This document shows positions 28,407-54,620 of a stretch of DNA of 64,000 bases, in pieces; within the stretch, counting starts at the first letter, position 1; every line of letters begins with the position of its first letter. The notes under the pieces are model-generated. The model saw only the letters and a list, made by a program, of their open reading frames with translations. It made no database searches and was not told the origin of the DNA. The translations under genes and the position numbers were made by a program. This DNA is from Candidatus Fermentithermobacillaceae bacterium (lineage in GTDB: Bacteria; Bacillota; Sulfobacillia; Fermentithermobacillales; DUSS01): NCBI GenBank assembly GCA_012842495.1, contig DUSS01000009.1, forward strand, positions 98,646 to 162,645. Reading direction: 5' to 3'.

Positions 28407-29720
28407 TTGAACTCGCATTTCGAGTTTCCATGGGACTTCTGCCGTGGCCTGGTCATCTTCCTCCTCATGGGGACGATGGTCTACCTGATAACCATGCCCG
28501 AGGGCGCAAGCGGCGTTGGACCGGCCACCTCACCCGGAGGCCCAGGGTACGCAAGGCCTCCGGGTGAGGCGTGTACCATCCCATCCGGGAACACCAGCTT
28601 TCCGGGCGAAAACGGCACCGGACCGGTACCTGGCAATGGCGGCGGGATAAACGGCTCTGGAGAAAACGCAAGCAACGCGGGAACTACGCGGAGCTTAAAC
28701 AGCGGCACAGACCAGCTCCTAGCGGATGTCCGGAGGGATGAAGCAAGATGGCTTAGCGCCTGCCAGCACCCGGATGGCGCCATCGCGATGGCCCCAGGAA
28801 GCGATAGGGTAGTACCGTATTTTGCCAACCTCGCAGCGATTACGCTGGTTAGGCTCGACCCCTCGAAGGCGCGACAGTATATCACATGGTATCTCGATCA
28901 CCTCAATGACCCGGACAGATGGGGACTCGCCGGCACCATCTACGATTTCCACGTCAAAGACGGAAAGCTTGTGCCGACCGGCAATTACGATTCCGCGGAC
29001 AGTTACGCGTCTACGTTTCTATCCCTGGTATCCGCATACTACCGGGAAACGAAAGATGCCAGATTCGTTAGAAACGAGCTCAACCGCATCCGCAAGGTTT
29101 CCGGTGTGGTACTCTCGTTGCAAGATAAAGACGGACTTGTAAGAGTAAAACCGGGAAGCCAAACAAAATACCTGATGGACAACTGCGAGAATTACGCCGG
29201 GTTGATGGATTGGGCGAAAACCTTGGAAGCCCTCGGCGAAACCGCTGAAGCTTCCCTGTACCGGGAGAAGGCTTCCCTCATCAAGCAAGGCATTCAGTCG
29301 GTGCTGTATGATCCTTCGACGGGAAAGTATGCCTGGTCACTGTCGCGGTTTGGTAAGAGATACCCGAAACAAGGTAAATGGTACCCGGATGGGGTGTCTC
29401 AACTCTCCTTGATATCCTGCGGCATAATAGAGCCCGGCAGCCCCGAGGCCAGGACCATTTGGGCCGATTTCAACTCGCAGTTTCCCGGTTGGGAAGAAGG
29501 AGTGAAGAAAGACTCGTTTCCCTGGGGAGTAGTGGCGATTACGGCATACACCATGTCCGATTTGCCGAGGGCAGAGCGCTATATAAAGTGGGTCCTGGAC
29601 CAATATGCATCCGCGGGCCGGGAGTACCCATGGTATGTACTGGAGTCGGCCTGCTTGATCCAGCTGTGTGACTCGGTCCCCGTCCGGAGTTCTGAGATGG
29701 TGCTGGCAGGAAGTTCCTGA
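28407..29720 (+). CDS. hypothetical exported/membrane-anchored protein with a Gly/Asn/Ser-rich linker and a large alpha-helical (possibly six-hairpin glycosidase-like) domain
   Basis: 437 aa; N-terminal TM (LVIFLLMGTMVYLI), a low-complexity linker (GPGYARPPGE...NGGGINGSGENASNAGTT), then a ~330-aa Trp/Tyr-rich domain with no recognised motifs. Confidence 0.5.
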   Translation: MNSHFEFPWDFCRGLVIFLLMGTMVYLITMPEGASGVGPATSPGGPGYARPPGEACTIPSGNTSFPGENGTGPVPGNGGGINGSGENASNAGTTRSLNSGTDQLLADVRRDEARWLSACQHPDGAIAMAPGSDRVVPYFANLAAITLVRLDPSKARQYITWYLDHLNDPDRWGLAGTIYDFHVKDGKLVPTGNYDSADSYASTFLSLVSAYYRETKDARFVRNELNRIRKVSGVVLSLQDKDGLVRVKPGSQTKYLMDNCENYAGLMDWAKTLEALGETAEASLYREKASLIKQGIQSVLYDPSTGKYAWSLSRFGKRYPKQGKWYPDGVSQLSLISCGIIEPGSPEARTIWADFNSQFPGWEEGVKKDSFPWGVVAITAYTMSDLPRAERYIKWVLDQYASAGREYPWYVLESACLIQLCDSVPVRSSEMVLAGSS

Positions 29721-32919: not shown

Positions 32920-33235
32920 TCAAAAGCCCGGGCAGAAACGTTAACGTTAACATCGAAAAACCTTGGCCAGAGACTGGTACCAGTAGCCTGGACCAAAAAC
33001 TCTAGACAAGAGCTAATTTATCAGATCCCGGTCTCCAATCAAAATCGGTGGTGGGGGCAGCCGGTACCTGACTACTCATTCTGACAGTAGATCGATCCGG
33101 TGGACCCAGTTGACTGCATCAAAGCCGGCGTCAGCAGTGATAAAGAAGCTGTCCAACTCTTTACCCTGTCTACGAAAGCACCCGGGCAGCCCGCCGTGAC
33201 TGGACTGGTGCAGCATCCCGTGCTATTGTATTAGC

Positions 33236-33395
33236 CGGCGAGGGTCTTCGGGGCAAGGTGAAGCAGCGCAAGCTGCCAGTCCTGACCGGCGGTAAAGCCC
33301 GCGAGCCGCGTCCCGTTCTACAGTTGGACACGGTAGAGCTGGTGAGATTCCAGCGCCGACGGTAAAGTCCGGAAGGGAGAAGATCCTGCGGTAAC
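33236..33395 (+). ncRNA. FMN riboswitch (RFN element)
   Basis: UCUUCGGGGCAAGGUGAA...GACCGGCGGUAAAGCCCGCGAGC...GGUGAGAUUCCAG...GCCGACGGUAAAGUCCGGAAGGGAGAAGAUCC aligns with the conserved RFN segments (compare B. subtilis ribD leader GCCGACAGUGAAAGUCUGGAUGGGAGAAGGAU). Directly upstream of an ECF S-component gene. Confidence 0.8.
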
Positions 33396-33457
33396 GATAT
33401 TCCGCATCAGATATGACCCCGAGGATCCCCCTGAAACCATACCGAGGGGGAATCTTT

Positions 33458-34051
33458 ATGTACGCAACCAGGTTTAATTCTCCAACCAACCGGGTCGTTC
33501 TAACAGGCCTCATGGCTGCACTGGCGCTCCTGCTTGAACTCTTCGTGCACATCCCCATGTTCGCCGAATACCTCCTCTATTCGCCCGGTGACGTCCCGGT
33601 AATTGTCACGTCGGTAGTTCTCGGACCTGCCCCGGGTCTCATGGCTGCTTTCACCAAAGCGGCGCTCTTCGTGGTCCTTACCGGAAAGGGCGGGCCTTTG
33701 GGAGGACTCATGCATTTCGTAGCTTCGGGTGGAATGGTCCTCGTGTTGGGCCTTCTCGCTCGTAAAACAAAGGGCAAAAGCTGGGTGCTTGTCCCCGCCG
33801 CGATCCTGACAAGGGTGGCACTCATGGTCCCCATGAACCTGCTAATCACCCCCATATATACCGGACTGCCGGCATCAGTAATTGCACAAACACTGGTACC
33901 TGTGGTAATTCCGTTCAACACGGTACACGCCGGGATAAACACAGTTTTGTCTCTGATCGTCCTGAAGGTTTTTCTGGAGAACCCGCGCCGGCTAGCGCGG
34001 TTCCAGGTCGCACTCTCTGAAAAGGGATCCGGAACCGAGGCGCGGCACTGA
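33458..34051 (+). CDS. ribU: ECF-transporter substrate-specific (S) component, probable riboflavin transporter RibU
   Basis: ~198 aa, six hydrophobic helices; preceded by the FMN riboswitch and a GAGGGGG SD. Confidence 0.7.
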   Translation: MYATRFNSPTNRVVLTGLMAALALLLELFVHIPMFAEYLLYSPGDVPVIVTSVVLGPAPGLMAAFTKAALFVVLTGKGGPLGGLMHFVASGGMVLVLGLLARKTKGKSWVLVPAAILTRVALMVPMNLLITPIYTGLPASVIAQTLVPVVIPFNTVHAGINTVLSLIVLKVFLENPRRLARFQVALSEKGSGTEARH

Positions 34052-34242
34052 GTACGTAAGCAGGCTGAGCCCGCATCCACTGGGGCTGTTCCGGCTGAAT
34101 TGGGTCTCGGGGGTTCGGTATCCCCTGAGACCTCTTCGCTGGCGTATAAACACCCAAAAGCGTCGTTTACCCGGAACCGACCATCGCAGGCGCACCAGAG
34201 AACCCGAGAACGCCGGTGAATATTGCAGGATAAGCCGGGGAA

Positions 34243-34842
34243 TTGGCGAATACCCTCGTAAACTTCGCTTGTAGCCCGGGAGATGGTCCTGTTGGGGTGA
34301 CGGTTGGACTTGAAGTCATGCTAAGAGAGGGGCTTTTCAAGGACAGGTCGGTCGGGCTTCTCACCAACCACACCGGCCTGAACCGGGATCTCGTTTCCAA
34401 CGTCGACCTCATGCTCAACGCCGGATATCGTATAAAGGCCCTTTTCTCACCCTGGGTAGATGGGTATGCCCTGGCTTCGCGCCTGAAAGAGTTAAATCTC
34501 CCAGGTGTGCTCTTCCGTCCGGTGTATTTCCGCCCGGCTTTCGGCAAGTGGTCCGGCGAAGTGGCAGGCGGCGTAGCGATCCACGTAGTCAGCGCGAAAG
34601 AGGTGCGCCCGGTGGAACTTGGAGTCCAGATGCTGTTCGCTCTCAGAGATCTCTACCCCGAACACTTCCAGTTTCGCCCGCCGTCGGCCAACGGCACGTA
34701 CTTCTTCGATCTCCTGGCCGGCGGTCCGGACCTGAGAGAGTCGCTTCAAAACGGGGACCCTCCCGACAAGATACTGGGGGAATGGGATGGACACGCTCGG
34801 GCATTCGTTGAAAGGCGTCGTCGCTACCTTATCTACGATTGA
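34243..34842 (+). pseudogene. DUF1343 (NamZ/YbbC exo-beta-N-acetylmuramidase-like) remnant with internal in-frame deletion
   Basis: The 199-aa ORF joins the DUF1343 N-terminal motif (VGLLTNHTGLN...ALFSP) directly to the C-terminal region (LNLPGVLFRPVYFRPAFGKWSGE...LYPEHFQF). The ~200-aa catalytic middle part is missing. Confidence 0.5.
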
Positions 34843-34889
34843 TTCCCGCCCTTGATGCGGGGAGATCGAGTAGACGGGAGGTTTTCAAA

Positions 34890-36179
34890 GTGGGATTGGG
34901 CGGCGGACGTCTATTCCTCGGAGTCGACGGGGGCGGCACCAGCACCGAAGCATCCCTAGTACTATTTTGCGAAGATAACCTGCCCGGGCCGGGAACTGCT
35001 CCGCCGCTTTCCGCAGCCGGTGACGGAACGCGCGGGCGCAAGGAGCTGCCGGAAGGCGAAAGGCACCCTGAGAGCGTTTTGCCGCGGTTTCGGGTTGTCT
35101 CGACAGGGACCGGGGGACCGTCCAACTGCTATGCCGTACCACCTGATACAGTCTTTAATTCCATAAGGGAAGCTATCTCCGGGTGTTTGGAGAAGTACGT
35201 GAAGGAACAGTTGCGACCCCAACTGGAAGCGCGGCCCAGAGGCGACCCCTGCGTCCTCCATCAGCTTGGCTCTGGCAAAAGACACTTAGGGGAACCAACC
35301 CGAAACTTTGCCCGCACCAGCCACACGGTATACGGTCTTGACGCGGTCGAGATGACATGCCTGGCTCTGGCCGGCGCCGTAAGGCAGGAGGATCGCGACG
35401 GTCTCATAAATCTCCTCGAGCCCATCTTTCCGGAGGGGTCCCGCTTTTTCATCGTGGAAGATTCGCTGGCGGCTCTCGCCGCAGCTCACGAAGGAAAGGA
35501 CGGGATAGTGATAATCGCGGGCACGGGCTCGAACTGCCTCGGTACGTACAGAGGCAAGGTAACCAAAGCGGGAGGATGGGGATATCTCATCGGCGACGAG
35601 GGGAGCGCTTACGACATCTCAAGACGCGCTTTGAACGCAGTTTTCCGCGCCTATGACGGGCGAGGGCCCGAAACCACAATTACGTCGTTGATTCTTTCCC
35701 GCCTTTCTTCCTGGAAAGATCGACCTGGCGATGAATACTCTCCCCCGCACGAGAGTTGCGGCAGCGACGGGCGTTTTTCCCGCTGCCTCCCTCGACCGGG
35801 GTCCGCGAAACTGGGGCCTCCGGATATTCTCCGCCTCATCCACGAAATGTCCAGAAACGAGCTGGCATCCATGGCACCTCTGGTGATGCAAGCTGCAGAA
35901 GAAGGAGACGCCGTGGCCCGGTCCATACTGGTTTCCTGCGCCAGAAACCTCGTGGAGATGGCTGTGGCCGTCGCGGGAAAACTTGGTCTCAACCCGCCGG
36001 TGGTGGCGCTCGTCGGCGGTGCCCTGGGAAACCCATTATACGCAAGTTTCGTCGAGGAAGAGCTCTCCCGAGCTTTGCCTGGAGCAGCCCTGAGGAAACC
36101 CCGCCACCCTCCTTCGGTAGGTGCAGCCATTCTCGCATATATGCGGTGGAGTTCAGATCATAGCCTCTCAGAAAGATGA
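34890..36179 (+). CDS. BadF/BadG/BcrA/BcrD-type ATPase, N-acetylglucosamine/N-acetylmuramate kinase-like (MurK-like)
   Basis: LGVDGGGTST phosphate-1 motif, IAGTGSNC, LIGDEGSAY. Likely GTG at 34890 after a GGGAGG SD; the ORF is open from TTG at 34839. Contains a ~50-aa low-complexity insertion. Confidence 0.65.
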   Translation: MGLGGGRLFLGVDGGGTSTEASLVLFCEDNLPGPGTAPPLSAAGDGTRGRKELPEGERHPESVLPRFRVVSTGTGGPSNCYAVPPDTVFNSIREAISGCLEKYVKEQLRPQLEARPRGDPCVLHQLGSGKRHLGEPTRNFARTSHTVYGLDAVEMTCLALAGAVRQEDRDGLINLLEPIFPEGSRFFIVEDSLAALAAAHEGKDGIVIIAGTGSNCLGTYRGKVTKAGGWGYLIGDEGSAYDISRRALNAVFRAYDGRGPETTITSLILSRLSSWKDRPGDEYSPPHESCGSDGRFSRCLPRPGSAKLGPPDILRLIHEMSRNELASMAPLVMQAAEEGDAVARSILVSCARNLVEMAVAVAGKLGLNPPVVALVGGALGNPLYASFVEEELSRALPGAALRKPRHPPSVGAAILAYMRWSSDHSLSER

Positions 36180-36193
36180 AGGGAGTTCCGCAC

Positions 36194-38398
36194 ATGAGCG
36201 AGTGCCTTCCCAGAACTGAAAGGCAAAACCCACTTACTCGCGACATAGATACCTGGCCCGTCAGAAAAATCCTCGAGGTCATGAACGCCGAGGACCACCG
36301 GGTCGCCTCCGCAGTTGCGTTGGAAATCACCAGTATCGTTAAGGCGACGAAGATGGTGGCCGAAGCTGTCGCCGGCGGAAGACGCGTCCTGTACGTAGGG
36401 TCAGGAACCAGCGGCAGGCTCGGAGTTCTTGACGCAGCCGAATGGCAGCCCACGTTCGGAGTCGGGTCCGGAGTCATCGACGCCGTAATAGCCGGCGGCA
36501 CCGAAGCGTTGTGGAGAGCAGTCGAGGGCCAGGAGGACCGGGAGGACGCGGGTAGACAGGCCGTGAAGCAGAAAAACATCGGACGGGGAGACGTGGTTGT
36601 CGGTATCGCAGCCAGTGGTAGGACACCGTTTACCCTTGGGGCCTTGCAGGAAGCCAGATCCAGGGGCGCCTCCACCATAGCTATCGTGGGTGACCCTTCG
36701 GGGCCGCTGAGCTCCTTTGCCGATGTGGTCATATCTCCGGACGTAGGCCCCGAGGTGATCGCAGGTTCCACCAGACTAAAAAACGGCACCGCCCAAAAGA
36801 TGGTGCTCAACATGATCTCCACCGCCGCCATGATCCTCCTGGGACGTACCTATTCCAACTTGATGGCGGGAGCTTCAGCCACCAACGCTAAACTCTCGAG
36901 AAGAGCCAGGCTTATCTTGAGTGAGGCCACCGGCGCCCCCATGGAAAAAGTGGAAGAGGCGCTGGAAGATGCCGAGGGTGATGTCCCGGTGGCGTTGATC
37001 TCTCTCCTCACCGGAGCCACCGCCGAAGAAGCCAGAGGGAAATTGCGAGAATCCAAGGGTTCTATCAGACGAGCTATCGAGCTGGCAGGACAACGCCGCA
37101 CCCCTTCCCCTGGCACCGTCTCTACCCTGGGTGAACAAGCCGGAGCGGGTACGGGCAGCTTTACTCCTCGTGCGCTCTCGGGCAAAAGAGACGGCGCTGG
37201 CGACAACCGGCTTTTCTCCGAAAGCGCTGGGGGAACCGGCAGCATGGGGACAGGTGACCGGAGTTCCGTCCCTCACCTCGAATTCGCCCGCCCGGAAGAG
37301 GTGGGACTGGACCCGGTAGCTCTGGAGCGTGCTTTCGACGTGGTAAGGGACGCCGTGGGCAACGGCGAAGGAGAGATTCCGGGCGCCGTTTGCGCCGTGG
37401 TGCGCCAGGGCAAAGTAGTCGGGCCGCGGGCATTCGGGCTTGCGGTGAGAACTCCCGTGAGAATGCCGGTGACTCCGGCGACCGTTTTTGACCTGGCGTC
37501 CCTGACTAAGGTCGTGGCCACACTCCCATCCATATTGGTCCTCATGGAAATGGGAAAACTCAGGCTGGATGACAGGGTATCTTTGTTCTTGCCGGACTTC
37601 GGCGCCAATGGAAAGGAGTCCATCACCATAAGGCATCTCTTGACTCACACTTCGGGACTCCCCGCCCACGTGAAGTTCTACGAAATGGGCCTTGACCGGG
37701 CAGGGATCGTTCGCAAGATCTGCGAAATGGAAGCGTCATCCCCCGGTGAGCACGTGGTTTACAGCGACCTCGGGTTCATCATTTTGGGCGAGATAGTGGA
37801 AAGGATTACCGGGAAGCGCCTGGACGAGTTCGCCCGCGAGAACATCTGGCGGCCGCTGGGGATGAACGACACATGTTTCTTGCCTGGCGAGTCTTCCCGC
37901 CACCGGATAGCTGCCACCGAATATCGCACGGATCTCAAAAAACTCATGTGGGGCGAGGTCCACGATGAAAACGCTTACGCCATGGGGGGCATCGCAGGCC
38001 ACGCCGGCCTCTTCAGCACCATTACGGATCTGGCGAGATATGCTTTGATGTGGCTTGGGGAGGGCGAGTTCGGCCCTGTTCGAGTTTTGTCCCGGAACAC
38101 GGTCCGTTTGGCCACGAAAGAGCATGTCAACAAAGAAGACAGGCGCGGCCTGGGTTGGGCATTGAAGTCTCGGGCTTTTTCTTCAGGCGGAGACCTTCTT
38201 TCGGACGCGTCTTATGGGCACACCGGGTTCACAGGCACAAGCCTTTGGTGCGATCCGGAAACCCGAACGGGGATCATCCTTCTCACCAATAGAGTGCATG
38301 CAGGAAGAGACGGGACGGCCATCATCGAACTCAGACCGAGATTTGCCAACGCGGTAGCCGCCGCAATCGGCGTTCGAAACCGGAACAACCTCTCTTGA
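36194..38398 (+). CDS. murQ: N-acetylmuramic acid-6-phosphate etherase (MurQ, SIS domain) fused to a beta-lactamase-fold serine hydrolase (AmiE/YbbE-like)
   Basis: N-terminal ~300 aa is MurQ-like (DIDTWPV..., GSGTSGRLG, GSTRLKNGTAQK). A ~70-aa G/S/T-rich linker follows. The C-terminal ~370 aa has SxxK (SLTK), YSD and HTG motifs of class C beta-lactamase/PBP-fold hydrolases. Confidence 0.8.
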   Translation: MSECLPRTERQNPLTRDIDTWPVRKILEVMNAEDHRVASAVALEITSIVKATKMVAEAVAGGRRVLYVGSGTSGRLGVLDAAEWQPTFGVGSGVIDAVIAGGTEALWRAVEGQEDREDAGRQAVKQKNIGRGDVVVGIAASGRTPFTLGALQEARSRGASTIAIVGDPSGPLSSFADVVISPDVGPEVIAGSTRLKNGTAQKMVLNMISTAAMILLGRTYSNLMAGASATNAKLSRRARLILSEATGAPMEKVEEALEDAEGDVPVALISLLTGATAEEARGKLRESKGSIRRAIELAGQRRTPSPGTVSTLGEQAGAGTGSFTPRALSGKRDGAGDNRLFSESAGGTGSMGTGDRSSVPHLEFARPEEVGLDPVALERAFDVVRDAVGNGEGEIPGAVCAVVRQGKVVGPRAFGLAVRTPVRMPVTPATVFDLASLTKVVATLPSILVLMEMGKLRLDDRVSLFLPDFGANGKESITIRHLLTHTSGLPAHVKFYEMGLDRAGIVRKICEMEASSPGEHVVYSDLGFIILGEIVERITGKRLDEFARENIWRPLGMNDTCFLPGESSRHRIAATEYRTDLKKLMWGEVHDENAYAMGGIAGHAGLFSTITDLARYALMWLGEGEFGPVRVLSRNTVRLATKEHVNKEDRRGLGWALKSRAFSSGGDLLSDASYGHTGFTGTSLWCDPETRTGIILLTNRVHAGRDGTAIIELRPRFANAVAAAIGVRNRNNLS

Positions 38399-38410
38399 AA
38401 TAAGGAGGTC

Positions 38411-40123
38411 ATGAACTTGACAGTCTCATCTGACCTCAGAACCATGAAGGAACCCGGGACCGGTACGGATTCTTCGAAGGTCCCCGCAGGTCTTGATGCC
38501 AAAGTAGAGGCTCGCCTCCGCGGGATGAGCCTGGAAGACAAGGTTGGACAGGTGTTCATGTTCGGGTTTCCCGGGAAGGACCCGGAAAACGCCCGACCGC
38601 TCATAGAAGACCTCCGGGCGGGAGGCATCATCTACTTCGCTCGCAACACGGGACCTGTGGGCGAAGTGGCCGCACTTTCCGCGACTCTCCAGGAGATTGC
38701 CTTGAGGTCGGGACCGGGAATTCCCCTCTTTATCTCCGCCGACCAGGAAGGAGGGATCGTCTGCCGGCTGACGGAAGGTTTCCCCGTGATGCCCGGCCAC
38801 ATGGCGCTGGCGGCGGCCGGCGGCCCCGGGCTCGTCGAGAAAGTAGCGGAGGCAATCGGGACAGGTTTGAGAGCTGCTGGGATAAACATGAACCTCGCGC
38901 CGGTCCTGGACGTTAACGACAACCCCGACAACCCGGTCATCGGGATAAGGTCTTTCGGCTCAAGCCCGGAAAGGGTGGCGGAACTGGGTGCAGCGTACGC
39001 TCGGGGATTGCGCGAAAGCGGGGTCATACCCGTGGGCAAGCACTTTCCGGGTCATGGCAACACCTCTGTGGACTCCCATCTGAACCTGCCCGTCCTTCCT
39101 CATTCGTGGGATAGGCTCGAAAGGGTGGAGCTCTTCCCGTTCCGCAGGGTGATTTCCGGGGGTCTCGAGTGCATCATGTCAGCTCACGTGCTATTCGAAG
39201 CCCTCGACCCTGACCGTCCGGCAACCCTTTCGCCCAAAGTCCTCGTGGGCCTGCTGAGGGAAAAGATCGGGTTTTCCGGGCTTATCATGACCGACTGTCT
39301 TGAGATGGACGCCATATCCGAATATTATTCCGGAACGGTCAGAGGAGCCGTTGAAGCCTTTAAAGCTGGGGCGGATGTGCTCCTCATATCCCACACCTTT
39401 GAGATGCAAAAAGAAGCTTATATGGCCCTTTGCAGCGCGGTCAGAAGCGGGGAAGTACCCCAGTCGCGCCTGGACGAATCGGTCTCAAGGATACTGAAGC
39501 TCAAGTACCTTTTCTCAATTCCAAACCCGCTCGAGCCCGAAGCTTTCCCCTTGAACAATTGGGATGAATACCGGAATCTTTCCGCTCAGGCGCACCGTGA
39601 TTCGATAACAGTGGTGAAGGACGAACGCGGCGTCGTGCCCCTCAAACCCGGAGCCCGGATCCTCCTGGTGACTCCCGACGGTGCGCAAAGGTTACAGATG
39701 GAGGACCCGGCGAGACCGGGGACGACCGCGGGTACGCCGTTGGGTAACGCTCTCCGGTCCAAAGGCTTCGTGGTGAGGGAACGTACCTATTCCACCTGCG
39801 AGATCCCGGGAGCCGTTGACGAGCACTACATGATCGTCGTCACCGAGGGAGCCACCCGGAACCCGGCGCAAGCTGCCTTCGTTGGGAGAGTGCGTGGCCT
39901 TTCCCTGCAGAGCCCTGCCCCTGGAACGGTCTCCGGGTCGCGGGGGCAAGCTATCTCGGTCATTCTGGTGGCAGCTCGCGAGCCTTACGATATATCCCTG
40001 TTCCCCGAGGTGGGGACCTACATATGCACTTATGGTTCAAGACCCGAGTCGATGGAAGCGCTCAGCCAGATCTTGGCCGGAAAGTGCGTCGCGAGGGGTA
40101 AACTCCCCGTGGAACTGGAATGA
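38411..40123 (+). CDS. nagZ: GH3 beta-N-acetylhexosaminidase NagZ-like
   Basis: GH3 N-domain motifs (GQVFMFGFPG, SADQEGG, KHFPGHG) plus a C-terminal domain as in Bacillus NagZ/YbbD. Confidence 0.8.
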   Translation: MNLTVSSDLRTMKEPGTGTDSSKVPAGLDAKVEARLRGMSLEDKVGQVFMFGFPGKDPENARPLIEDLRAGGIIYFARNTGPVGEVAALSATLQEIALRSGPGIPLFISADQEGGIVCRLTEGFPVMPGHMALAAAGGPGLVEKVAEAIGTGLRAAGINMNLAPVLDVNDNPDNPVIGIRSFGSSPERVAELGAAYARGLRESGVIPVGKHFPGHGNTSVDSHLNLPVLPHSWDRLERVELFPFRRVISGGLECIMSAHVLFEALDPDRPATLSPKVLVGLLREKIGFSGLIMTDCLEMDAISEYYSGTVRGAVEAFKAGADVLLISHTFEMQKEAYMALCSAVRSGEVPQSRLDESVSRILKLKYLFSIPNPLEPEAFPLNNWDEYRNLSAQAHRDSITVVKDERGVVPLKPGARILLVTPDGAQRLQMEDPARPGTTAGTPLGNALRSKGFVVRERTYSTCEIPGAVDEHYMIVVTEGATRNPAQAAFVGRVRGLSLQSPAPGTVSGSRGQAISVILVAAREPYDISLFPEVGTYICTYGSRPESMEALSQILAGKCVARGKLPVELE

Positions 40124-40287
40124 CGTGCCCTCCGCAACGGGGGCGCGTTTTCCGGTGTGCATGGGGAAAATGTGTTTTTCGCCGCAGCACAGTGCAAAGG
40201 GAAGGCAACGGGAGCCAGCCAGCTGAGTTGGTGCGGCAGCTTGCCACGTACACCGTACGAATATATTCGCCGGGAGGGTTACCGTTT

Positions 40288-41079
40288 ATGTCATCCAACA
40301 GCTATGCCGAGGAAATTCAGCACCACCTGGTTTCCCGCCGCCGGGACGTGACCGTCCTCGCTCTGGAGGAAACGGACTCCACCAACGATGAGGCCCGCGA
40401 CCTGGCGGAAAAAGGTTTTCCCGAGGGTACACTGGTTGTGGCGAAGAGACAACGCCGGGGTAGAGGGCGCATGGGTCGGAGATGGACATCGCCCGAAGGC
40501 GGCGTATTCATGTCGATAGTACTGCGCCCACCGCGACATCTACCAGGCCTTTCAGCTCTTCCCCTCGTCGTGGGATACGGCGTAGCTAGGGCGCTTCGGG
40601 AGGAATATGACGTCCCCGCCATGATAAAATGGCCCAACGATGTCCTTGTTCGGGGAAGGAAAATCGCGGGGATCCTTTGCGAGTCAGCGCTCGGGCAGAC
40701 GAATTGCTGGGTCGTAGCGGGGATCGGCATTAACGCCACCATGACCAGTCAGGACTTTCCCCAAGAGATACAGGGCCTGGCTACATCGCTTTTCCTGGAA
40801 ACGGGAATTCCTGTCTCGATTCCCGCCCTTATAGCTTCAGTGCACGACCGCGTAATGCAATCTTATTCCGCTTTCCTTGACCGGGGGTTTGCCGCACTTT
40901 TGCCCACTATTTTGCAAATCTCGGCCTACGTCGGGGGAAGCGTGACCGTCAGCACTCCGGCAGGACCCCTTGTCGGAAAGATGCTGGGCATCGACCAGGA
41001 GGGTCTGCTCCTTTTGGAACTCCCCAACAACGACGTCCGGCGCATACCCGCTGGGGACGTGTCGCTGAGAAAAAGCTGA
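40288..41079 (+). CDS. birA: biotin—[acetyl-CoA-carboxylase] ligase (group I BirA, no HTH)
   Basis: RQRRGRGRMGRRWTSPEGG BPL motif; ATG at 40288 after a GGGAGGG SD; the ORF is open from 40120. Confidence 0.8.
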   Translation: MSSNSYAEEIQHHLVSRRRDVTVLALEETDSTNDEARDLAEKGFPEGTLVVAKRQRRGRGRMGRRWTSPEGGVFMSIVLRPPRHLPGLSALPLVVGYGVARALREEYDVPAMIKWPNDVLVRGRKIAGILCESALGQTNCWVVAGIGINATMTSQDFPQEIQGLATSLFLETGIPVSIPALIASVHDRVMQSYSAFLDRGFAALLPTILQISAYVGGSVTVSTPAGPLVGKMLGIDQEGLLLLELPNNDVRRIPAGDVSLRKS

Positions 41080-41080
41080 C

Positions 41081-42232
41081 TTACCCTGAGCCAGCAGGCC
41101 GAAGTTTCTTTACGATGTCAGGCAGGATATCCAGAACGTAGTCTACTTCTTCCCCGGTGTTTTCCTCGTCCAACGTCAGCCTGAGAGAACCCTGGGCCAT
41201 CTCGTGGGGAAGGCCGAGCGCCAGGAGGACGTGAGACGGCTCAAGGGAACCAGAGGTACAAGCCGAACCGCTGGAGGCCGAAACTCCCTTTACATCCAGG
41301 TTCAACAGCAGCGACTCGCCTTCGATGAACCGGAAGCAGAAATGTGCATTCCCCGGAAGCCTCATAATCCTGTGGCCGTTCAGCTTGACATCGGGCACCC
41401 TCTCGAGAACCCCGTCGATGAGCTTATCCCTCAACGCAGCGATCCTCGCAGCTCTCTCCTCCAGCGAAGACGTAGCAAGTTCGATTGCCGCCCCAAGCCC
41501 AACTATTCCTGCAACGTTCTCGGTGCCGGCCCGTCTGTTCCGCTCCTGACCGCCTCCGTGAATGAACGGATCGAGCCGCACCCCTTTGCGCACGTACAAG
41601 GCTCCAATCCCTTTGGGACCGTGGAACTTATGAGCCGACAAAGACAGGAGATCCACCCCGAGCTTCTCCACGTCCACCGGCACATGGCCCACCGCCTGAA
41701 CCGCGTCGGTGTGAAACAGCACACCCTTTTCCCTGCAAATCCTGGCAATTTCGGCAACCGGCTCTATCGTTCCGATCTCGTTGTTGGCGAACATGATGGA
41801 CACGAGCACGGTATTTTGTTCTATGGCTCTGGATACATCACCGGGATCTACCAGCCCATCGGAATCCACCGGCAGGTATGTCACGTGGAAACCGTGCTTC
41901 TCCAGGTACTCACAGGGTTGAAGCACGGCGTGATGTTCGATTTGGCTCGTGATTATGTGATTTCCCTTTTCGCGGCGGGCAAACGCCACACCTTTGATCG
42001 CCCAGTTGTCCGCCTCTGTTCCACCAGATGTAAAATAGATTTCCTCCGGTTGGGCGCCGAGGGCTCGCGCCGTCCGCTCTCTAGCCTGCTCGACAGCCTC
42101 CCTCGCCTCCCTACCTTCCAAATACAGAGTGGAAGCATTGCCGTATTTCCCGGTCAGATATGGCATCATGGCCTCAAGGACTTCCGGTTTGAGGCTCGTC
42201 GTGGCCGCATTATCCATGTATATCCTCTTCAT
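41081..42232 (-). CDS. nifS: cysteine desulfurase (NifS/IscS family)
   Basis: [12 protein letters not shown]..., PLP-lysine [10 protein letters not shown], catalytic SSGSACTSG. Upstream ORF extension to 42310 is translated repeat sequence. Confidence 0.8.
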
Positions 42233-51924: not shown

Positions 51925-52005
51925 ATCGGTTGCACTCTGACGGACAACTGGCCTTGTCGACGCAGCAACTCCCATGTCAACTACGGGCTGGTGAGGAAAA
52001 TAGAG

Positions 52006-52082
52006 TGGTGGCCCCAACGGGAGTCGAACCCGTGTTACCGCCTTGAAAGGGCGATGTCTTAACCACTTGACCATGGGGCCAC
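52006..52082 (-). tRNA. tRNA-Glu (anticodon UUC)
   Basis: rc: GTGGCCCCATGGTCAAGTGGTTAAGACATCGCCCTTTCAAGGCGGTAACACGGGTTCGACTCCCGTTGGGGCCACCA. Cloverleaf intact, anticodon loop CTTTCAA. Confidence 0.85.
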
Positions 52083-52083
52083 C

Positions 52084-52158
52084 TGGTGCGCCCGGTGTGC
52101 ATCGAACACACGACCAACCGGTTATGAGCCGGCCGCTCTGCCGCTGAGCTACGGGCGC
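52084..52158 (-). tRNA. tRNA with CAU anticodon (Met; a lysidine-modified Ile2 cannot be excluded)
   Basis: rc: GCGCCCGTAGCTCAGCGGCAGAGCGGCCGGCTCATAACCGGTTGGTCGTGTGTTCGATGCACACCGGGCGCACCA. Confidence 0.75.
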
Positions 52159-52164
52159 AATTAA

Positions 52165-52241
52165 TGGCTCCTCGAGCAGGACTCGAACCTGCAACCCTCC
52201 GGTTAACAGCCGGATGCTCTGCCATTGAGCTATCGAGGAGC
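52165..52241 (-). tRNA. tRNA-Asn (anticodon GUU)
   Basis: rc: GCTCCTCGATAGCTCAATGGCAGAGCATCCGGCTGTTAACCGGAGGGTTGCAGGTTCGAGTCCTGCTCGAGGAGCCA. Confidence 0.85.
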
Positions 52242-52250
52242 GTCACTTGT

Positions 52251-52279
52251 AGTATACGCATCGATACGCGGTGAGTCAA
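52251..52279 (-). promoter_or_regulatory. consensus sigma-A promoter of the tRNA Asn–Met–Glu operon
   Basis: Minus strand: TTGACT – 17 nt – TATACT, ending ~10 nt before the tRNA-Asn 5' end. Confidence 0.65.
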
Positions 52280-52292
52280 GGAAATGTTGGTT

Positions 52293-54620
52293 CTAAGCCG
52301 CGTCTATTCTTACTAAGGGTACCGCTTCCGGCGCGCCGGCCTGCGCCGGCGCGGCCACCGCAATTGTAGCCGCTTCCCAGCGACCCGCACCCCCCGGTTC
52401 ACCTTCCAACTCGACCCCCGGGACTTCCCCGGCGCCGGCTCGCAGCTTGTTTCGCTTGCCTTCCCCGCTCAATACCGCTTTTTCCGCGAAAAAAGTATCT
52501 CGCCCAGCAGAGCTATAAGGGTACCCCCCCCCCCGTTTGGCAATATCTGCCATCTCTTCAGCCGGTATCCTCAAAAACGCCTCAACCACCCGCGGATCAA
52601 ATTGCCTACCGGCACACCGCCGCAACTCTTGTCTGGCCGCCTTGGCAGTAAGAGCCCGCCGGTACGGCCTGGCCGACGTCATCGCATCGTAAGCATCCGC
52701 TACCCGGATGATCCGCGCCAGGAGCGGGATCTCTTCCCCCACCAGGCCCGCCGGATAACCGCCACCACAGTAATCTTCGTGGTGGTGCCGCACCGCTTCG
52801 ATCACCGCCCCCGGAAACCTGGCCGGCTCGAGAATCCTCGCCCCCACCACAGGGTGACCCCGCACCTCCTTCCGTTCTTCATCGTCGAGATACCCCGGCT
52901 TGAGCAAGATGCTTTCCCGCACGCCAATCTTTCCCAAATCGTGCAACAGTCCGGCCAGGTACACCTGCTCCTGCTCATCGGCACTAAGCCCCAGCAGCCT
53001 GGCGCACGACCGCGCCCACCGCGCCACTCGCAGGGAGTGCCCCCGCGTGTAAACATCCCTAGCCTCCAGGGCCGCCGCCAGTGCCCGCACGGCACTCAGG
53101 TAGTATTCCCGAAGCGACGAGTACAGCCGGGCGTTTTCCAGCGCCAGCCCGGTCTGGCACGCAACGATCGCCAGGTACCCGACATCTTCCTCGCTCCACC
53201 GCCGCGGTGCGGGGGAGTAAATCTTAAGCGTGCCGAGAATCTTTTCACCCGCCCGTACCGGCACCACGGCCACCGCACGCACTTCAGCCGAGTAGTATGG
53301 GAGGTGCATGCCCGGCTCGCTGTCGCTCACGTCTTCTACGACCACCGGTTCTCCCGACTCCAGCACCTTCCCCAGCAGGGTGCCCTCAGGCCGGACGCGC
53401 CCGGCCCTGGCCCGCAGCTCCGCACCCATACCCAGGCTCCCTCTCAGGACCAGCTCGCCCGTCTCCTCATCAAGTAGCCGCAGGGCACACCTCTCTGCCC
53501 CCAGGACATCCCGGACGCTCGCCAGGGCCGACTCCACCACAACATCCACGTTCAGGCTGCCCGACACCACCCGCCCCACTTCGATCAGCCGTTCCAGCAT
53601 GGCCGCCCTTAGCTGCAGCTCGCGGAAAAGGCGGGCATTCTCAAGCGCAAGCCCCAGGCTCGTGCCCAACGTGGTAAGGAAAGCGGTCTCGTCTTCGGCA
53701 AAACCCGCCCCTTCCGGTCTGCCCGCTATGGTCAGCACCCCTGTTACCCTGGCCCCAACCATCAGGGGTAAGACTACCGCAGGCCGCCTCTCTTCGGGCG
53801 TGCCACTTCCGGGCCGGCCGTCAAAATGAGCGGCGCGCGCCTCCCGCTCAACCGCGGCAACCACTTCGCCCGGCGGTACCACGCGGAACTCGTCACGGGA
53901 CTCCACAGCGGCCGCCACTTCGGCGCCCGAGAGCCCCAACGCCTGAGGAAGCATCACCACCGATCCGCTGGTGGCACCCGTCAACTCCAACACCGACTGC
54001 AGGGCCCGCCGGGCCACTTCAGCTATCTCGAGGCTACCGGAAACGGTCTGGCCGAACTCAAACAGAGCGGCAAGCTCACCCACCTTCCTGCCGAGTTCCT
54101 GCTTCGCGTAAAGCAGCTGAGCCACCATCTCCGTTAGGTTCCGTACCACCGCCATAACCGCCCGGAGCCGCTCTTCCGTCCAGACCGGCACCACCCCGGC
54201 CGCCTCAAGGAGCTTTTCCGGATCTATGCCCGTTTCCCGGGCCAGTTGCATCACCGTCTCCTCCGGGAGCGGTCGCACGGCCACGTTGCCTCCCAGCACG
54301 ACCGCTACCGTTTCTCCGGACACCCGCAGGGGAACCGCCAGATGCATCAGCCCAGCATGGCAGGTATGAAGGATCTCCTCCCCGACAGCCGCAGCAGCCT
54401 CCGCAGAGGCCACGCGAGAAGCCGCGCACCTGGCCCGCGCTTCGGGATTGGCACCGAGCATGGCGCAGAAGGGACACAGGTTGGACGGCTCGGTCAGGGG
54501 ACGGCCGTCCGGGTATGCGAGCATAACCGCCAGTCCCAGGGCCCGGCTCATGCTCTCCTGAAGTTCGTGTAAACCTATCTGTCTGAGCTCTTCGTAGAAC
54601 GCGGACTTTTCCTTAAGCAT
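52293..54620 (-). CDS. PocR-like sensor + tandem GAF domains + HD-GYP phosphodiesterase
   Basis: N-terminal Cys/His-containing PocR-like region (CPFCAML...HTCHAGL), three GAF-like segments, and a C-terminal HD-GYP (LLHDLGK...HHEDYCGGGYP). The last ~70 codons are low-complexity and follow a G11 run. Confidence 0.75.
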   Translation of the reverse strand: MLKEKSAFYEELRQIGLHELQESMSRALGLAVMLAYPDGRPLTEPSNLCPFCAMLGANPEARARCAASRVASAEAAAAVGEEILHTCHAGLMHLAVPLRVSGETVAVVLGGNVAVRPLPEETVMQLARETGIDPEKLLEAAGVVPVWTEERLRAVMAVVRNLTEMVAQLLYAKQELGRKVGELAALFEFGQTVSGSLEIAEVARRALQSVLELTGATSGSVVMLPQALGLSGAEVAAAVESRDEFRVVPPGEVVAAVEREARAAHFDGRPGSGTPEERRPAVVLPLMVGARVTGVLTIAGRPEGAGFAEDETAFLTTLGTSLGLALENARLFRELQLRAAMLERLIEVGRVVSGSLNVDVVVESALASVRDVLGAERCALRLLDEETGELVLRGSLGMGAELRARAGRVRPEGTLLGKVLESGEPVVVEDVSDSEPGMHLPYYSAEVRAVAVVPVRAGEKILGTLKIYSPAPRRWSEEDVGYLAIVACQTGLALENARLYSSLREYYLSAVRALAAALEARDVYTRGHSLRVARWARSCARLLGLSADEQEQVYLAGLLHDLGKIGVRESILLKPGYLDDEERKEVRGHPVVGARILEPARFPGAVIEAVRHHHEDYCGGGYPAGLVGEEIPLLARIIRVADAYDAMTSARPYRRALTAKAARQELRRCAGRQFDPRVVEAFLRIPAEEMADIAKRGGGYPYSSAGRDTFFAEKAVLSGEGKRNKLRAGAGEVPGVELEGEPGGAGRWEAATIAVAAPAQAGAPEAVPLVRIDAA
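52524..52534. repeat. C11/G11 homopolymer tract inside the 3' end of the HD-GYP gene
   Basis: gtaCCCCCCCCCCCgtttgg on the plus strand, encoding the GGG of the GGGYP motif on the minus strand. Confidence 0.8.

Follow-up and report, generated by a model that had tools for sequence, protein, structure and literature searches.

The closest described counterparts of the peptidoglycan-recycling locus reported here are those of Bacillus subtilis, Escherichia coli, Clostridium acetobutylicum and Tannerella forsythia. B. subtilis carries the operon murQ-murR-murP-amiE-nagZ-namZ (ybbC), in which AmiE, a PF00144 protein of the murR regulon, is the exo-acting amidase that cleaves N-acetylmuramic acid (MurNAc) from L-alanine (PMC10653849, Table 1; PMC8054146). 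Its AmiE, NagZ and NamZ are secreted and act in the order NagZ, then AmiE, then NamZ, the last of which works mainly on MurNAc-GlcNAc as well as MurNAc-GlcNAc-anhMurNAc, where GlcNAc is N-acetylglucosamine and anhMurNAc is 1,6-anhydro-MurNAc (PMC8054146). In E. coli, yfeW, which encodes the penicillin-binding protein (PBP) PBP4B, is the third gene of the murQ-murP-yfeW operon (PMC5061867), and a MurK-type kinase beside MurQ without a phosphotransferase system (PTS) has been published for C. acetobutylicum and T. forsythia (PMC5790795). Here we describe a related locus on the + strand of a 64-kb stretch of DNA (the window) from an uncultured Bacillota bacterium of a biogas reactor. Its distinguishing element is a single polypeptide that joins the etherase MurQ to a serine hydrolase of the beta-lactamase fold. 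We consider it probable that the locus is a cytoplasmic operon for the catabolism and salvage of imported peptidoglycan fragments, and hence a variation on a known pathway rather than a new system.

The families encoded here, namely MurQ, a PF00144 hydrolase, a two-domain NagZ of glycoside hydrolase family 3 (GH3) bearing the Asp-His signature and a NamZ of family GH171, are those of the B. subtilis operon (PMC8054146, PMC5061867), and the proposed sequential exo-degradation of muropeptides followed by MurQ would match it as well (PMC8054146). A first-pass annotation, made from the letters and open reading frames (ORFs) of the window, had pointed out this resemblance; it was right about the shared families and overlooked the cytoplasmic location of the pathway and the presence of the fusion throughout a clade. 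In contrast to B. subtilis, with its secreted AmiE, NagZ and NamZ and its uptake by the PTS protein MurP, the proteins of our locus have no signal peptides, PTS and MurR are missing, and a BadF-type kinase is present; moreover, the hydrolase is fused to MurQ, AnmK belonged to the ancestral operon, and NamZ is truncated. E. coli is resembled in the MurQ sequence (42% identity), in that of the hydrolase (33% to YfeW), in cytoplasmic degradation and in the AnmK of the ancestral operon. Unlike our hydrolase, YfeW is a protein of its own, a low-affinity PBP that is exported or membrane-associated; the cytoplasmic amidase of E. coli, AmpD (Amidase_2 fold), was not found here, and E. coli uses the MurP PTS and no MurNAc kinase. 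The replacement of PTS-coupled phosphorylation by a BcrAD/BadFG kinase beside MurQ is shared with C. acetobutylicum and T. forsythia (murTKQ; PMC5790795), whose operons, unlike ours, contain neither a fused hydrolase nor NagZ, NamZ or AnmK. The T. forsythia operon also includes the transporter MurT, whereas no transporter is encoded in our locus.

Between 34.2 and 41.1 kb of the window, five co-directional ORFs follow one another with stops and starts that overlap or nearly abut (TTGA at 34839-34842, ATGA at 36176-36179 and ATGA at 40120-40123). The four genes of the pathway span 34243-40123, and the ORF coordinates and domain calls given for this interval by the first-pass annotation agree with the ORF list and with Pfam and NCBIfam profile searches of the ORF translations, which supply the domain assignments used throughout. 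The features are as follows.

34207-34317, + strand: non-coding upstream leader or promoter region of namZ, 3' of the hairpin that ends the ribU unit
34318-34842, + strand: namZ remnant, 174 aa from the ATG used by its orthologs (the mechanical ORF from TTG 34243 has 199 aa)
34450-34452, + strand: junction of the 597-bp in-frame namZ deletion, located by BLASTN against the related locus L003
34890-36179, + strand: MurK-like sugar kinase of the BcrAD/BadFG family (PF01869), 429 aa, or 446 aa from TTG 34839
36194-37081, + strand: MurQ domain of the fusion, whose whole ORF, 36176/36194-38398, has 740/734 aa; ATG 36176 overlaps the kinase stop
37082-37261, + strand: G/S/T/A-rich linker of ~60 aa, disordered according to its composition and the predicted model
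37262-38398, + strand: predicted class-C beta-lactamase-fold serine hydrolase domain of the YfeW/PBP4B-AmiE family (PF00144)
38411-40123, + strand: two-domain GH3 beta-N-acetylglucosaminidase NagZ (PF00933), 570 aa
40120-40188, + strand: anmK remnant, consisting of the start codon (ATGA with the nagZ stop) and ~66 nt of the 3' end, by its match to L003
40288-41079, + strand: birA, biotin-protein ligase (TIGR00121, 181.9 bits), a conserved downstream neighbour outside the pathway

Public assemblies call the kinase as 429 aa from 34890. Labels such as L003 denote related loci and contigs that were compared with the window.

The fusion of MurQ to a beta-lactamase-fold hydrolase is confirmed as a single uninterrupted ORF. 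As the first-pass annotation had claimed, both enzymes lie on one polypeptide: a stop/start pair between the two halves is absent here and in the more than 50 homologous fusions that we recovered. The MurQ half scores 352.7 bits against NF003915 (cut-off 168), 328.2 against NF009222 (255) and 303.9 against TIGR00274 (302), with a profile match that spans residues 12-303 of the 740-aa ORF, while the hydrolase half scores 235.5 bits against PF00144 (Beta-lactamase) over residues 398-713. In the BLASTP alignment with E. coli MurQ, LDASE aligns with LDAAE and VEGAED with VEGQED. Across 16 diverse fusions, 40-89% identical, residues E83, E111, E114 and D115 are invariant, and the MurQ motif GxGxSGR is kept without exception together with the counterparts of Glu83 and Glu114, the catalytic glutamates of E. 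coli MurQ. With every sequence feature of a MurNAc-6-phosphate etherase in place, this activity is predicted for the domain. The motifs SLTK, YSD and HTG of the hydrolase (residues 436-439, 523-525 and 676-678 in 734-aa numbering), which had been read correctly from the window, are invariant in the same 16 proteins, as are the family-specific blocks VHDxNA and GHAGLF; this includes the SxxK nucleophile motif, on which the first-pass annotation had staked its proposal.

The two domains are tethered loosely, if the structure prediction is correct. The linker varies freely in length and sequence among the 16 aligned fusions, and that of the window is disordered and of the G/S/T-rich kind described before, at ~60 aa rather than the ~70 aa first given. 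In the full-length AlphaFold2 model, two well-folded domains are separated by residues 302-357 with a predicted local distance difference test score (pLDDT) below 50, and the predicted TM-score (pTM) of the whole is 0.54, so the protein is predicted to have no defined interdomain packing. A confident interdomain interface was sought in this model and none was found; hence it lends no structural support to substrate channelling.

Among the 5.8 billion proteins searched, over 50 clusters (at 90% identity) have the same SIS plus Beta-lactamase architecture, which the first-pass annotation had thought worth looking for elsewhere. With lengths of 664-748 aa, these homologs extend from 100% to ~40% identity. 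Almost every one belongs to uncultured Firmicutes/Bacillota, including Candidatus (Ca.) Fermentithermobacillus carboniphilus, their taxonomy resting on NCBI names (Bacillota metagenome-assembled genomes (MAGs) and Ca. Fermentithermobacillus). Rather than being peculiar to one genome, the fusion is a fixed trait of a clade of Bacillota, uncultured relatives of Ca. Fermentithermobacillus that are thermophilic or come from anaerobic digesters. After clustering at 50% identity, only 2 of the top 150 representatives carry the form with MurQ at the N-terminus and the hydrolase at the C-terminus; the architecture is therefore genuine yet phylogenetically narrow. Further candidates among these representatives turned out to be truncated GH3::hydrolase proteins or BadF::MurQ fusions, and apparent full-length matches in a search of genome contigs were adjacent separate genes instead. 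Among the matches listed in the latter search, most were stand-alone or NagZ/NamZ-fused hydrolases, not members of the MurQ-fused clade. The fused proteins are already present in public databases, where they are annotated simply as MurQ, and no paper on a MurQ-beta-lactamase-fold fusion was found in the open-access literature.

What the hydrolase half does is less readily told than what it is. The best NCBIfam model for it is PBP4B (E. coli YfeW), at 194.1 bits, with the next best ~100 bits lower at 92, and in BLASTP its 33% identity to YfeW extends over the full length (E 1e-57) with all motif blocks aligned. The AlphaFold2 model of the isolated domain has a pLDDT of 95, and Foldseek places it in the class C beta-lactamase / family VIII esterase fold with TM-scores of 0.72-0.82; motifs of the types SxxK, Y-x-[ND] and [KH]-T-G are all present, and together these features assign the domain, by sequence and model, to the class-C beta-lactamase / DD-peptidase fold. 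Its likeness to B. subtilis AmiE (accession O05213), which the first-pass annotation had put forward as a shared fold, is fair at the family level, both being members of PF00144, and was judged by family membership rather than by sequence. Neither an AmiE nor a PBP4B structure was among the PDB sequence and Foldseek matches. The domain carries no export signal and sits behind the cytoplasmic MurQ on one polypeptide, and stand-alone homologs that adjoin murQ in Bacillaceae likewise begin directly with the catalytic domain.

We infer that the hydrolase domain is a cytoplasmic AmiE-like MurNAc-L-alanine (muropeptide) amidase, mainly because the family is recurrently fused to, or adjoins, enzymes of the pathway, in a Rosetta-stone pattern. 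Across phyla, the same hydrolase family is fused to NagZ (~990 aa), to NamZ (~770-830 aa) and to AnmK plus MurQ (1111 aa). Examples are a GH3::hydrolase fusion beside murQ (L015) and a transporter-murQ-hydrolase::NamZ cluster (L047), both in Acidobacteriota, and a metagenomic 1111-aa hydrolase::AnmK::MurQ protein (L090), which chains the amidase-family domain, AnmK and MurQ in that order and is flanked by namZ, GH3 and BadF kinase genes. Fusions to NagZ and NamZ fit an amidase, since these enzymes carry out the steps on either side of AmiE in the digestion sequence published for B. subtilis (PMC8054146). Like ours, these proteins, from Acidobacteriota, Planctomycetota and others, join the hydrolase domain (43-50% identical) to a recycling enzyme, often beside murQ; unlike ours, their partner is NagZ or NamZ, and they are far commoner and taxonomically wider. 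The hydrolase also occurs unfused next to the same partners: a Bacillota MAG has kinase, murQ, hydrolase and GH3 as separate genes (L067), and in Fredinandcohnia humi (L009) and Neobacillus dielmonensis (L010) the hydrolase gene directly follows murQ. These look like precursor arrangements, from which the fusion would have arisen by a Rosetta-stone joining of genes that are adjacent elsewhere. Cytoplasmic clusters of the same content are found in Sporosarcina sp. UB5 (L021: ABC-transporter genes, kinase, hydrolase, GH3, AnmK and NamZ) and in Bacillus sp. FJAT-27225 (L012: NamZ, MurQ, MurR, kinase and hydrolase).

Two further observations concern these clusters. Together with L015, L047 and L090, the proteins P0241 and P0250 exemplify recycling-enzyme fusions in many combinations across phyla. 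In the cultured Bacilli, a conserved ~317-aa protein is encoded between kinase and hydrolase (L012, 5977-6930; L021, 5988-6944); the equivalent position in Neobacillus (L010, 5924-6910) holds a gene whose product is GNAT-like by Pfam, with no counterpart in the window.

The kinase matches PF01869 (BcrAD_BadFG) at 114.3 bits (cut-off 31.5; E 9.5e-33) over profile positions 1-271, and its motifs DGGGT, AGTGSN and GGWGYLIGDEGS, for ATP/phosphate and sugar binding, are intact. Of the solved structures, 8zo3, which bears the annotation MurNAc/GlcNAc kinase, matches it best (E 8e-26); against the NagK_SO3507 equivalog the kinase scores 102.8 bits, below the cut-off of 370. We therefore describe it as a MurK-like member of PF01869, for which context and the BadF-kinase::MurQ fusions (627-672 aa) suggest MurNAc specificity; the existence of such fusions elsewhere ties the kinase family to MurQ. 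No PTS gene is present in the cluster, and every related locus examined likewise combines kinase and MurQ without one. The first-pass annotation was thus correct in naming a MurK-like kinase in place of the MurP PTS; the arrangement is not unusual and is already known (PMC5790795). Three low-complexity insertions in the kinase (~34980-35096, 35199-35336 and 35724-35843, + strand), together adding ~110-130 aa of lineage-specific sequence, are absent from compact orthologs of 319-338 aa. The kinases of the closest relatives are intermediate, at 371, 403 and 406 aa against the 429-446 aa found here, and their loop lengths differ at 89-91% identity; these low-complexity loops are expanding and contracting rapidly.

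NagZ directly follows the fusion, as had been stated before, and has the Pfam match (PF00933 Glyco_hydro_3, 287 bits), the signature and the solved relatives expected of a two-domain NagZ, to which family we assign it on sequence. The signature K-H-[FI]-P-G-[HL]-G-x4-D-[ST]-H, which includes the Asp-His dyad, is found at residues 210-223 as KHFPGHGNTSVDSH. The solved relatives are the GH3 beta-N-acetylglucosaminidase 6k5j (E 4e-115), 4zm6 and B. subtilis YbbD/NagZ, 3bmx (E 1e-73), and the score against the single-domain Gram-negative model NF003740, 192 bits, falls just below its cut-off of 207. On direct reading of the sequences, neither a signal peptide nor a hydrophobic N-terminal segment was found in NamZ, the fusion or NagZ, so the pathway is predicted to be entirely cytoplasmic, as in Gram-negative bacteria, in contrast to B. 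subtilis, where AmiE, NagZ and NamZ are secreted (PMC8054146).

Four related loci (L003, L004, L006 and L007; fusion identity 89%, 91%, 89% and 62%) show the gene order namZ-kinase-murQ::hydrolase-nagZ-anmK-birA with intact NamZ (373-398 aa) and AnmK (385-413 aa), and in the more distant L089 the first four genes agree, while anmK follows downstream after a few others. The ancestral operon, judged from this comparison, also held anmK. In the lineage of the window, namZ and anmK have each been removed by a single clean deletion. Relative to the intact 373-aa ortholog of L003, an 89% relative, exactly 199 codons (597 bp) of namZ are gone in frame at 34450/34451. BLASTN aligns window positions 33200-34451 with L003 2387-3633 and 34450-35180 with L003 4229-4959, leaving only 2-3 nt of microhomology, CC(G), at the junction. 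Retained are 44 aa at the N-terminus and the greater part of the C-terminal auxiliary domain, in Pfam terms positions 1-35 of the 203 of NamZ_N and positions 29-152 of NamZ_C. The missing segment extends from the glutamate of PEHG to the arginine of SEGRGT inclusive, which are the counterparts of B. subtilis Glu92, the putative catalytic residue, and Arg279 (PMC8054146); PEHG is conserved in the solved NamZ homolog 4k05. The product is a homolog of NamZ (GH171, DUF1343) by descent that, with these residues gone from its sequence, is predicted to be incapable of NamZ function, and the first-pass description of an internal-deletion remnant without the catalytic middle region was accurate. The deletion, being in frame, preserves the stop/start overlap with the kinase gene.

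Just past the end of the interval first reported, at 40120-40188, lies the second deletion, which the first-pass annotation overlooked when it counted that of namZ. It removed ~1096 bp of anmK: window positions 40123-40188 correspond to the last part of the gene for a 390-aa AnmK in L003 (11142-11207), and apart from its start codon the gene is reduced in the window to ~66 nt of 3' sequence, without an AnmK domain (PF03702). No other copy of AnmK or NamZ was found in the 64-kb window, where tblastn shows just the anmK tail. With a third deletion, of nifU between birA and nifS, three deletions (namZ core, anmK and nifU) lie within 7 kb relative to three close relatives.

Several side observations attach to these sites. 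The orphaned anmK start reads the anmK tail out of frame, misses its stop and enters birA in frame, making 40120-41079 an uninterrupted mechanical ORF of 319 aa, in which birA proper begins at 40288. Ribosomes that re-initiate after nagZ could thereby translate BirA as a 319-aa protein, lengthened by 56 aa at its N-terminus; the proper birA start at 40288, with the ribosome-binding site GGGAGG, is preserved. At the nifU site, window 41072-41099 corresponds to L003 12019-12616: in L003 and L004, birA and the cysteine desulfurase gene are separated by a NifU_N gene (142-148 aa), and in L006 a shorter one (119 aa) comes after birA. The window has no nifU, and the deletion there seems to have taken with it the final few codons of the desulfurase gene. 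In another uncultured lineage, P0268 (L092 2460-3152, from the Logan assembly of SRR13115018) has, to judge from a single short contig, a different in-frame namZ deletion of ~150 aa that includes the PEHG Glu; it heads the same type of namZ-kinase operon, again with an ATGA overlap with the kinase gene. Perhaps namZ can be inactivated only in non-polar (in-frame) ways. A homolog search with the short NamZ remnant gave 4 matches, a count that is no measure of the frequency of truncated NamZ since so short a query is insensitive.

The word decayed, which had been applied to NamZ, does not suit it. Beyond the one clean deletion there is no further damage: on the window branch the remnant has 9 synonymous changes and 1 nonsynonymous change, against a neutral expectation of ~1:3, and its omega of ~0.04-0.14 (pairwise 0.09-0.14) is the same as between intact orthologs. 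In the absence of relaxed selection, the remnant is not a decaying pseudogene; either the deletion came late on the branch or constraint acts on the remnant, for instance to maintain translational coupling with the kinase gene. The kinase, fusion and nagZ remain under purifying selection: for them and for birA, omega on the window branch is 0.03-0.18, which does not exceed the values of relatives whose operons are complete.

Taken together, these genes would form a coherent four-activity route for reducing-end GlcNAc-MurNAc-peptides. NagZ would first take the non-reducing GlcNAc off GlcNAc-MurNAc-peptides, and the C-terminal serine-hydrolase domain of the fusion would then strip the stem peptide from the exposed MurNAc. 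The BadF-type kinase would phosphorylate MurNAc, and probably also GlcNAc, at C6, and the N-terminal MurQ domain, tethered to the hydrolase by the disordered linker, would turn MurNAc-6-phosphate into GlcNAc-6-phosphate and D-lactate. In the ancestor, NamZ would have removed non-reducing MurNAc from denuded glycans and AnmK would have handled the 1,6-anhydro-MurNAc of lytic-transglycosylase products, so that the branches for anhydro-MurNAc and MurNAc-GlcNAc may have been lost. Given that the main substrates of B. subtilis NamZ are MurNAc-GlcNAc as well as MurNAc-GlcNAc-anhMurNAc, the joint loss of NamZ and AnmK is consistent with dropping the denuded-glycan/anhydro-end branch while keeping the branch for muramidase products, a narrowing that is read from the 64-kb window. 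The amidase specificity, the kinase substrate, the order of the steps, the uptake route and the physiological effect of the deletions are what we infer in this scheme.

Several points weigh against it. The hydrolase domain, at 194 bits, falls short of the NF002968 PBP4B equivalog cut-off of 385, and by sequence it is best regarded as a homolog of PBP4B, not an equivalog. Among solved structures it comes closest to esterases (EstG, family VIII) and DD-peptidase-like proteins, none of them amidases, with which it shares 19-28% identity. The amidase and etherase steps would not be consecutive, and the fusion has no obvious channelling advantage (pTM 0.54). Finally, neither a transporter nor a MurR-type regulator was found in the cluster or the 64-kb window when homologs of the ABC, SSF and MurR components of related clusters were sought.

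The alternative that best survives, though we think it unlikely, is that the hydrolase domain is a stem-peptide peptidase (a DD- or LD-carboxypeptidase or a D-aminopeptidase) and that the amidase is encoded elsewhere. Its best curated match is after all PBP4B, for which the only activity reported, in the work of Vega & Ayala 2006 as cited in PMC5061867, is a weak DD-carboxypeptidase; the third motif is HTG, and a Pyrococcus PBP homolog, alkaline D-peptidase and D-amino-acid amidase are among the PDB matches. Against this reading, neither Amidase_2 nor Amidase_3 occurs in any conserved cluster examined, yet the kinases need free MurNAc or anhydro-MurNAc. The recurrent NagZ and NamZ fusions fit an exo-amidase acting on the sugar-peptide bond (PMC8054146), and the characterised PF00144 member of the equivalent B. 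subtilis operon is an amidase. Somewhat less likely still is that the operon is being lost, with the two deletions as the first steps of pseudogenisation and the remaining genes unused. Three deletions within 7 kb and the long low-complexity inserts of the kinase would suit such a process; the remaining ORFs, however, are intact with all catalytic motifs, their omega values (0.03-0.18) do not exceed those of complete-operon relatives, and the namZ deletion is in frame with the overlap kept.

We regard as very improbable a role of the domain as a family VIII-type esterase, for instance one that removes the 6-O-acetyl group from MurNAc to permit phosphorylation at C6. The top PDB matches, EstG (7u1c, TM-score 0.82), the family VIII carboxylesterase 4ivi, EstB and EH7, point in that direction; with these esterases the domain shares just 19-28% identity, compared with 33% across its whole length for YfeW. 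To our knowledge, the peptidoglycan O-acetyl esterases described so far have another fold, and an esterase would leave both the clusters without an amidase and the NamZ and NagZ fusions unexplained. That the fusion or the NamZ truncation is a sequencing or assembly artefact, as might be feared of metagenome assemblies from one project, is scarcely credible in view of fused homologs in dozens of independent samples down to 40% identity, of three assembly pipelines that agree at 100% over 14 kb, and of deletion junctions whose 2-3 nt of microhomology offer no collapsible repeat. A one-off mis-assembly is unlikely for the locus as a whole, since two other assemblies, of the biogas-fermenter runs DRR066655 and DRR066656 (Logan, ENA), match it at 100% over the 14-kb region, and the identical protein is found on 11 contigs and in one NCBI MAG; the short NamZ is likewise recorded at NCBI.

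The amidase reading can be carried a step further, if only as a tentative suggestion that may well prove wrong. On the strength of the recurrent fusions to MurQ, NagZ, NamZ and AnmK, the whole YfeW/PBP4B-AmiE branch of PF00144, including E. coli PBP4B, could consist of dedicated exo-MurNAc-L-alanine amidases of recycling, not of penicillin-binding DD-carboxypeptidases, and the MurQ-fused form might even act on 6-phosphorylated MurNAc-peptides. In that event, the tethered domains would catalyse consecutive steps.

Upstream of namZ, the ~110-nt leader at 34207-34317 is near-identical in L003, L004 and L006 and hardly varies among four relatives that have diverged by 0.4-0.8 at synonymous sites. 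A 1-nt indel in the alignment breaks its reading frame, so the leader is non-coding; it could be a promoter/operator or a regulatory leader, and within it neither a consensus sigma-70 site, sought by scanning, nor an Rfam family was found. Further upstream, the gene for an energy-coupling factor (ECF) S-component (33413-34051, + strand) stands behind an FMN riboswitch (33240-33388, + strand; RF00050, 103.7 bits). We considered this S-component as an importer of MurNAc or muropeptides and ruled it out: the riboswitch lies 5' of it, and a hairpin and a separate conserved leader precede namZ. With the FMN riboswitch directly upstream, it is a riboflavin transporter in a separate unit. All close relatives, and Ca. 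Fermentithermobacillus too, have the pair of riboswitch and RibU-like S-component next to the recycling operon. Elsewhere in the window, three tandem tRNA genes lie at 52009-52239 (- strand); the adjacent 2-kb bin, 52001-54000, is the most G+C-rich of the window (0.645), with a GC skew that is strongly negative. A 437-aa ORF at 28407-29720 (+ strand) has a hydrophobic N-terminus and a G/P/N/S-rich low-complexity stretch, and no Pfam match at E <= 0.01.

Peptidoglycan recycling is poorly mapped outside the E. coli and B. subtilis models. The locus and its relatives point to an all-cytoplasmic, kinase-based MurNAc pathway in spore-forming Bacillota, and leave the known chemistry of the pathway unchanged. 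The paired loss of NamZ and AnmK offers a small natural experiment on the types of fragment that are scavenged. For the hydrolase family, the beta-lactamase-fold protein beside murQ in both model organisms emerges as a stable member of the pathway, fused to four recycling enzymes across lineages. This gives a testable function to proteins annotated as 'beta-lactamase', 'serine hydrolase', 'esterase EstB' or 'MurQ', and bears on the role of PBP4B/YfeW in E. coli.

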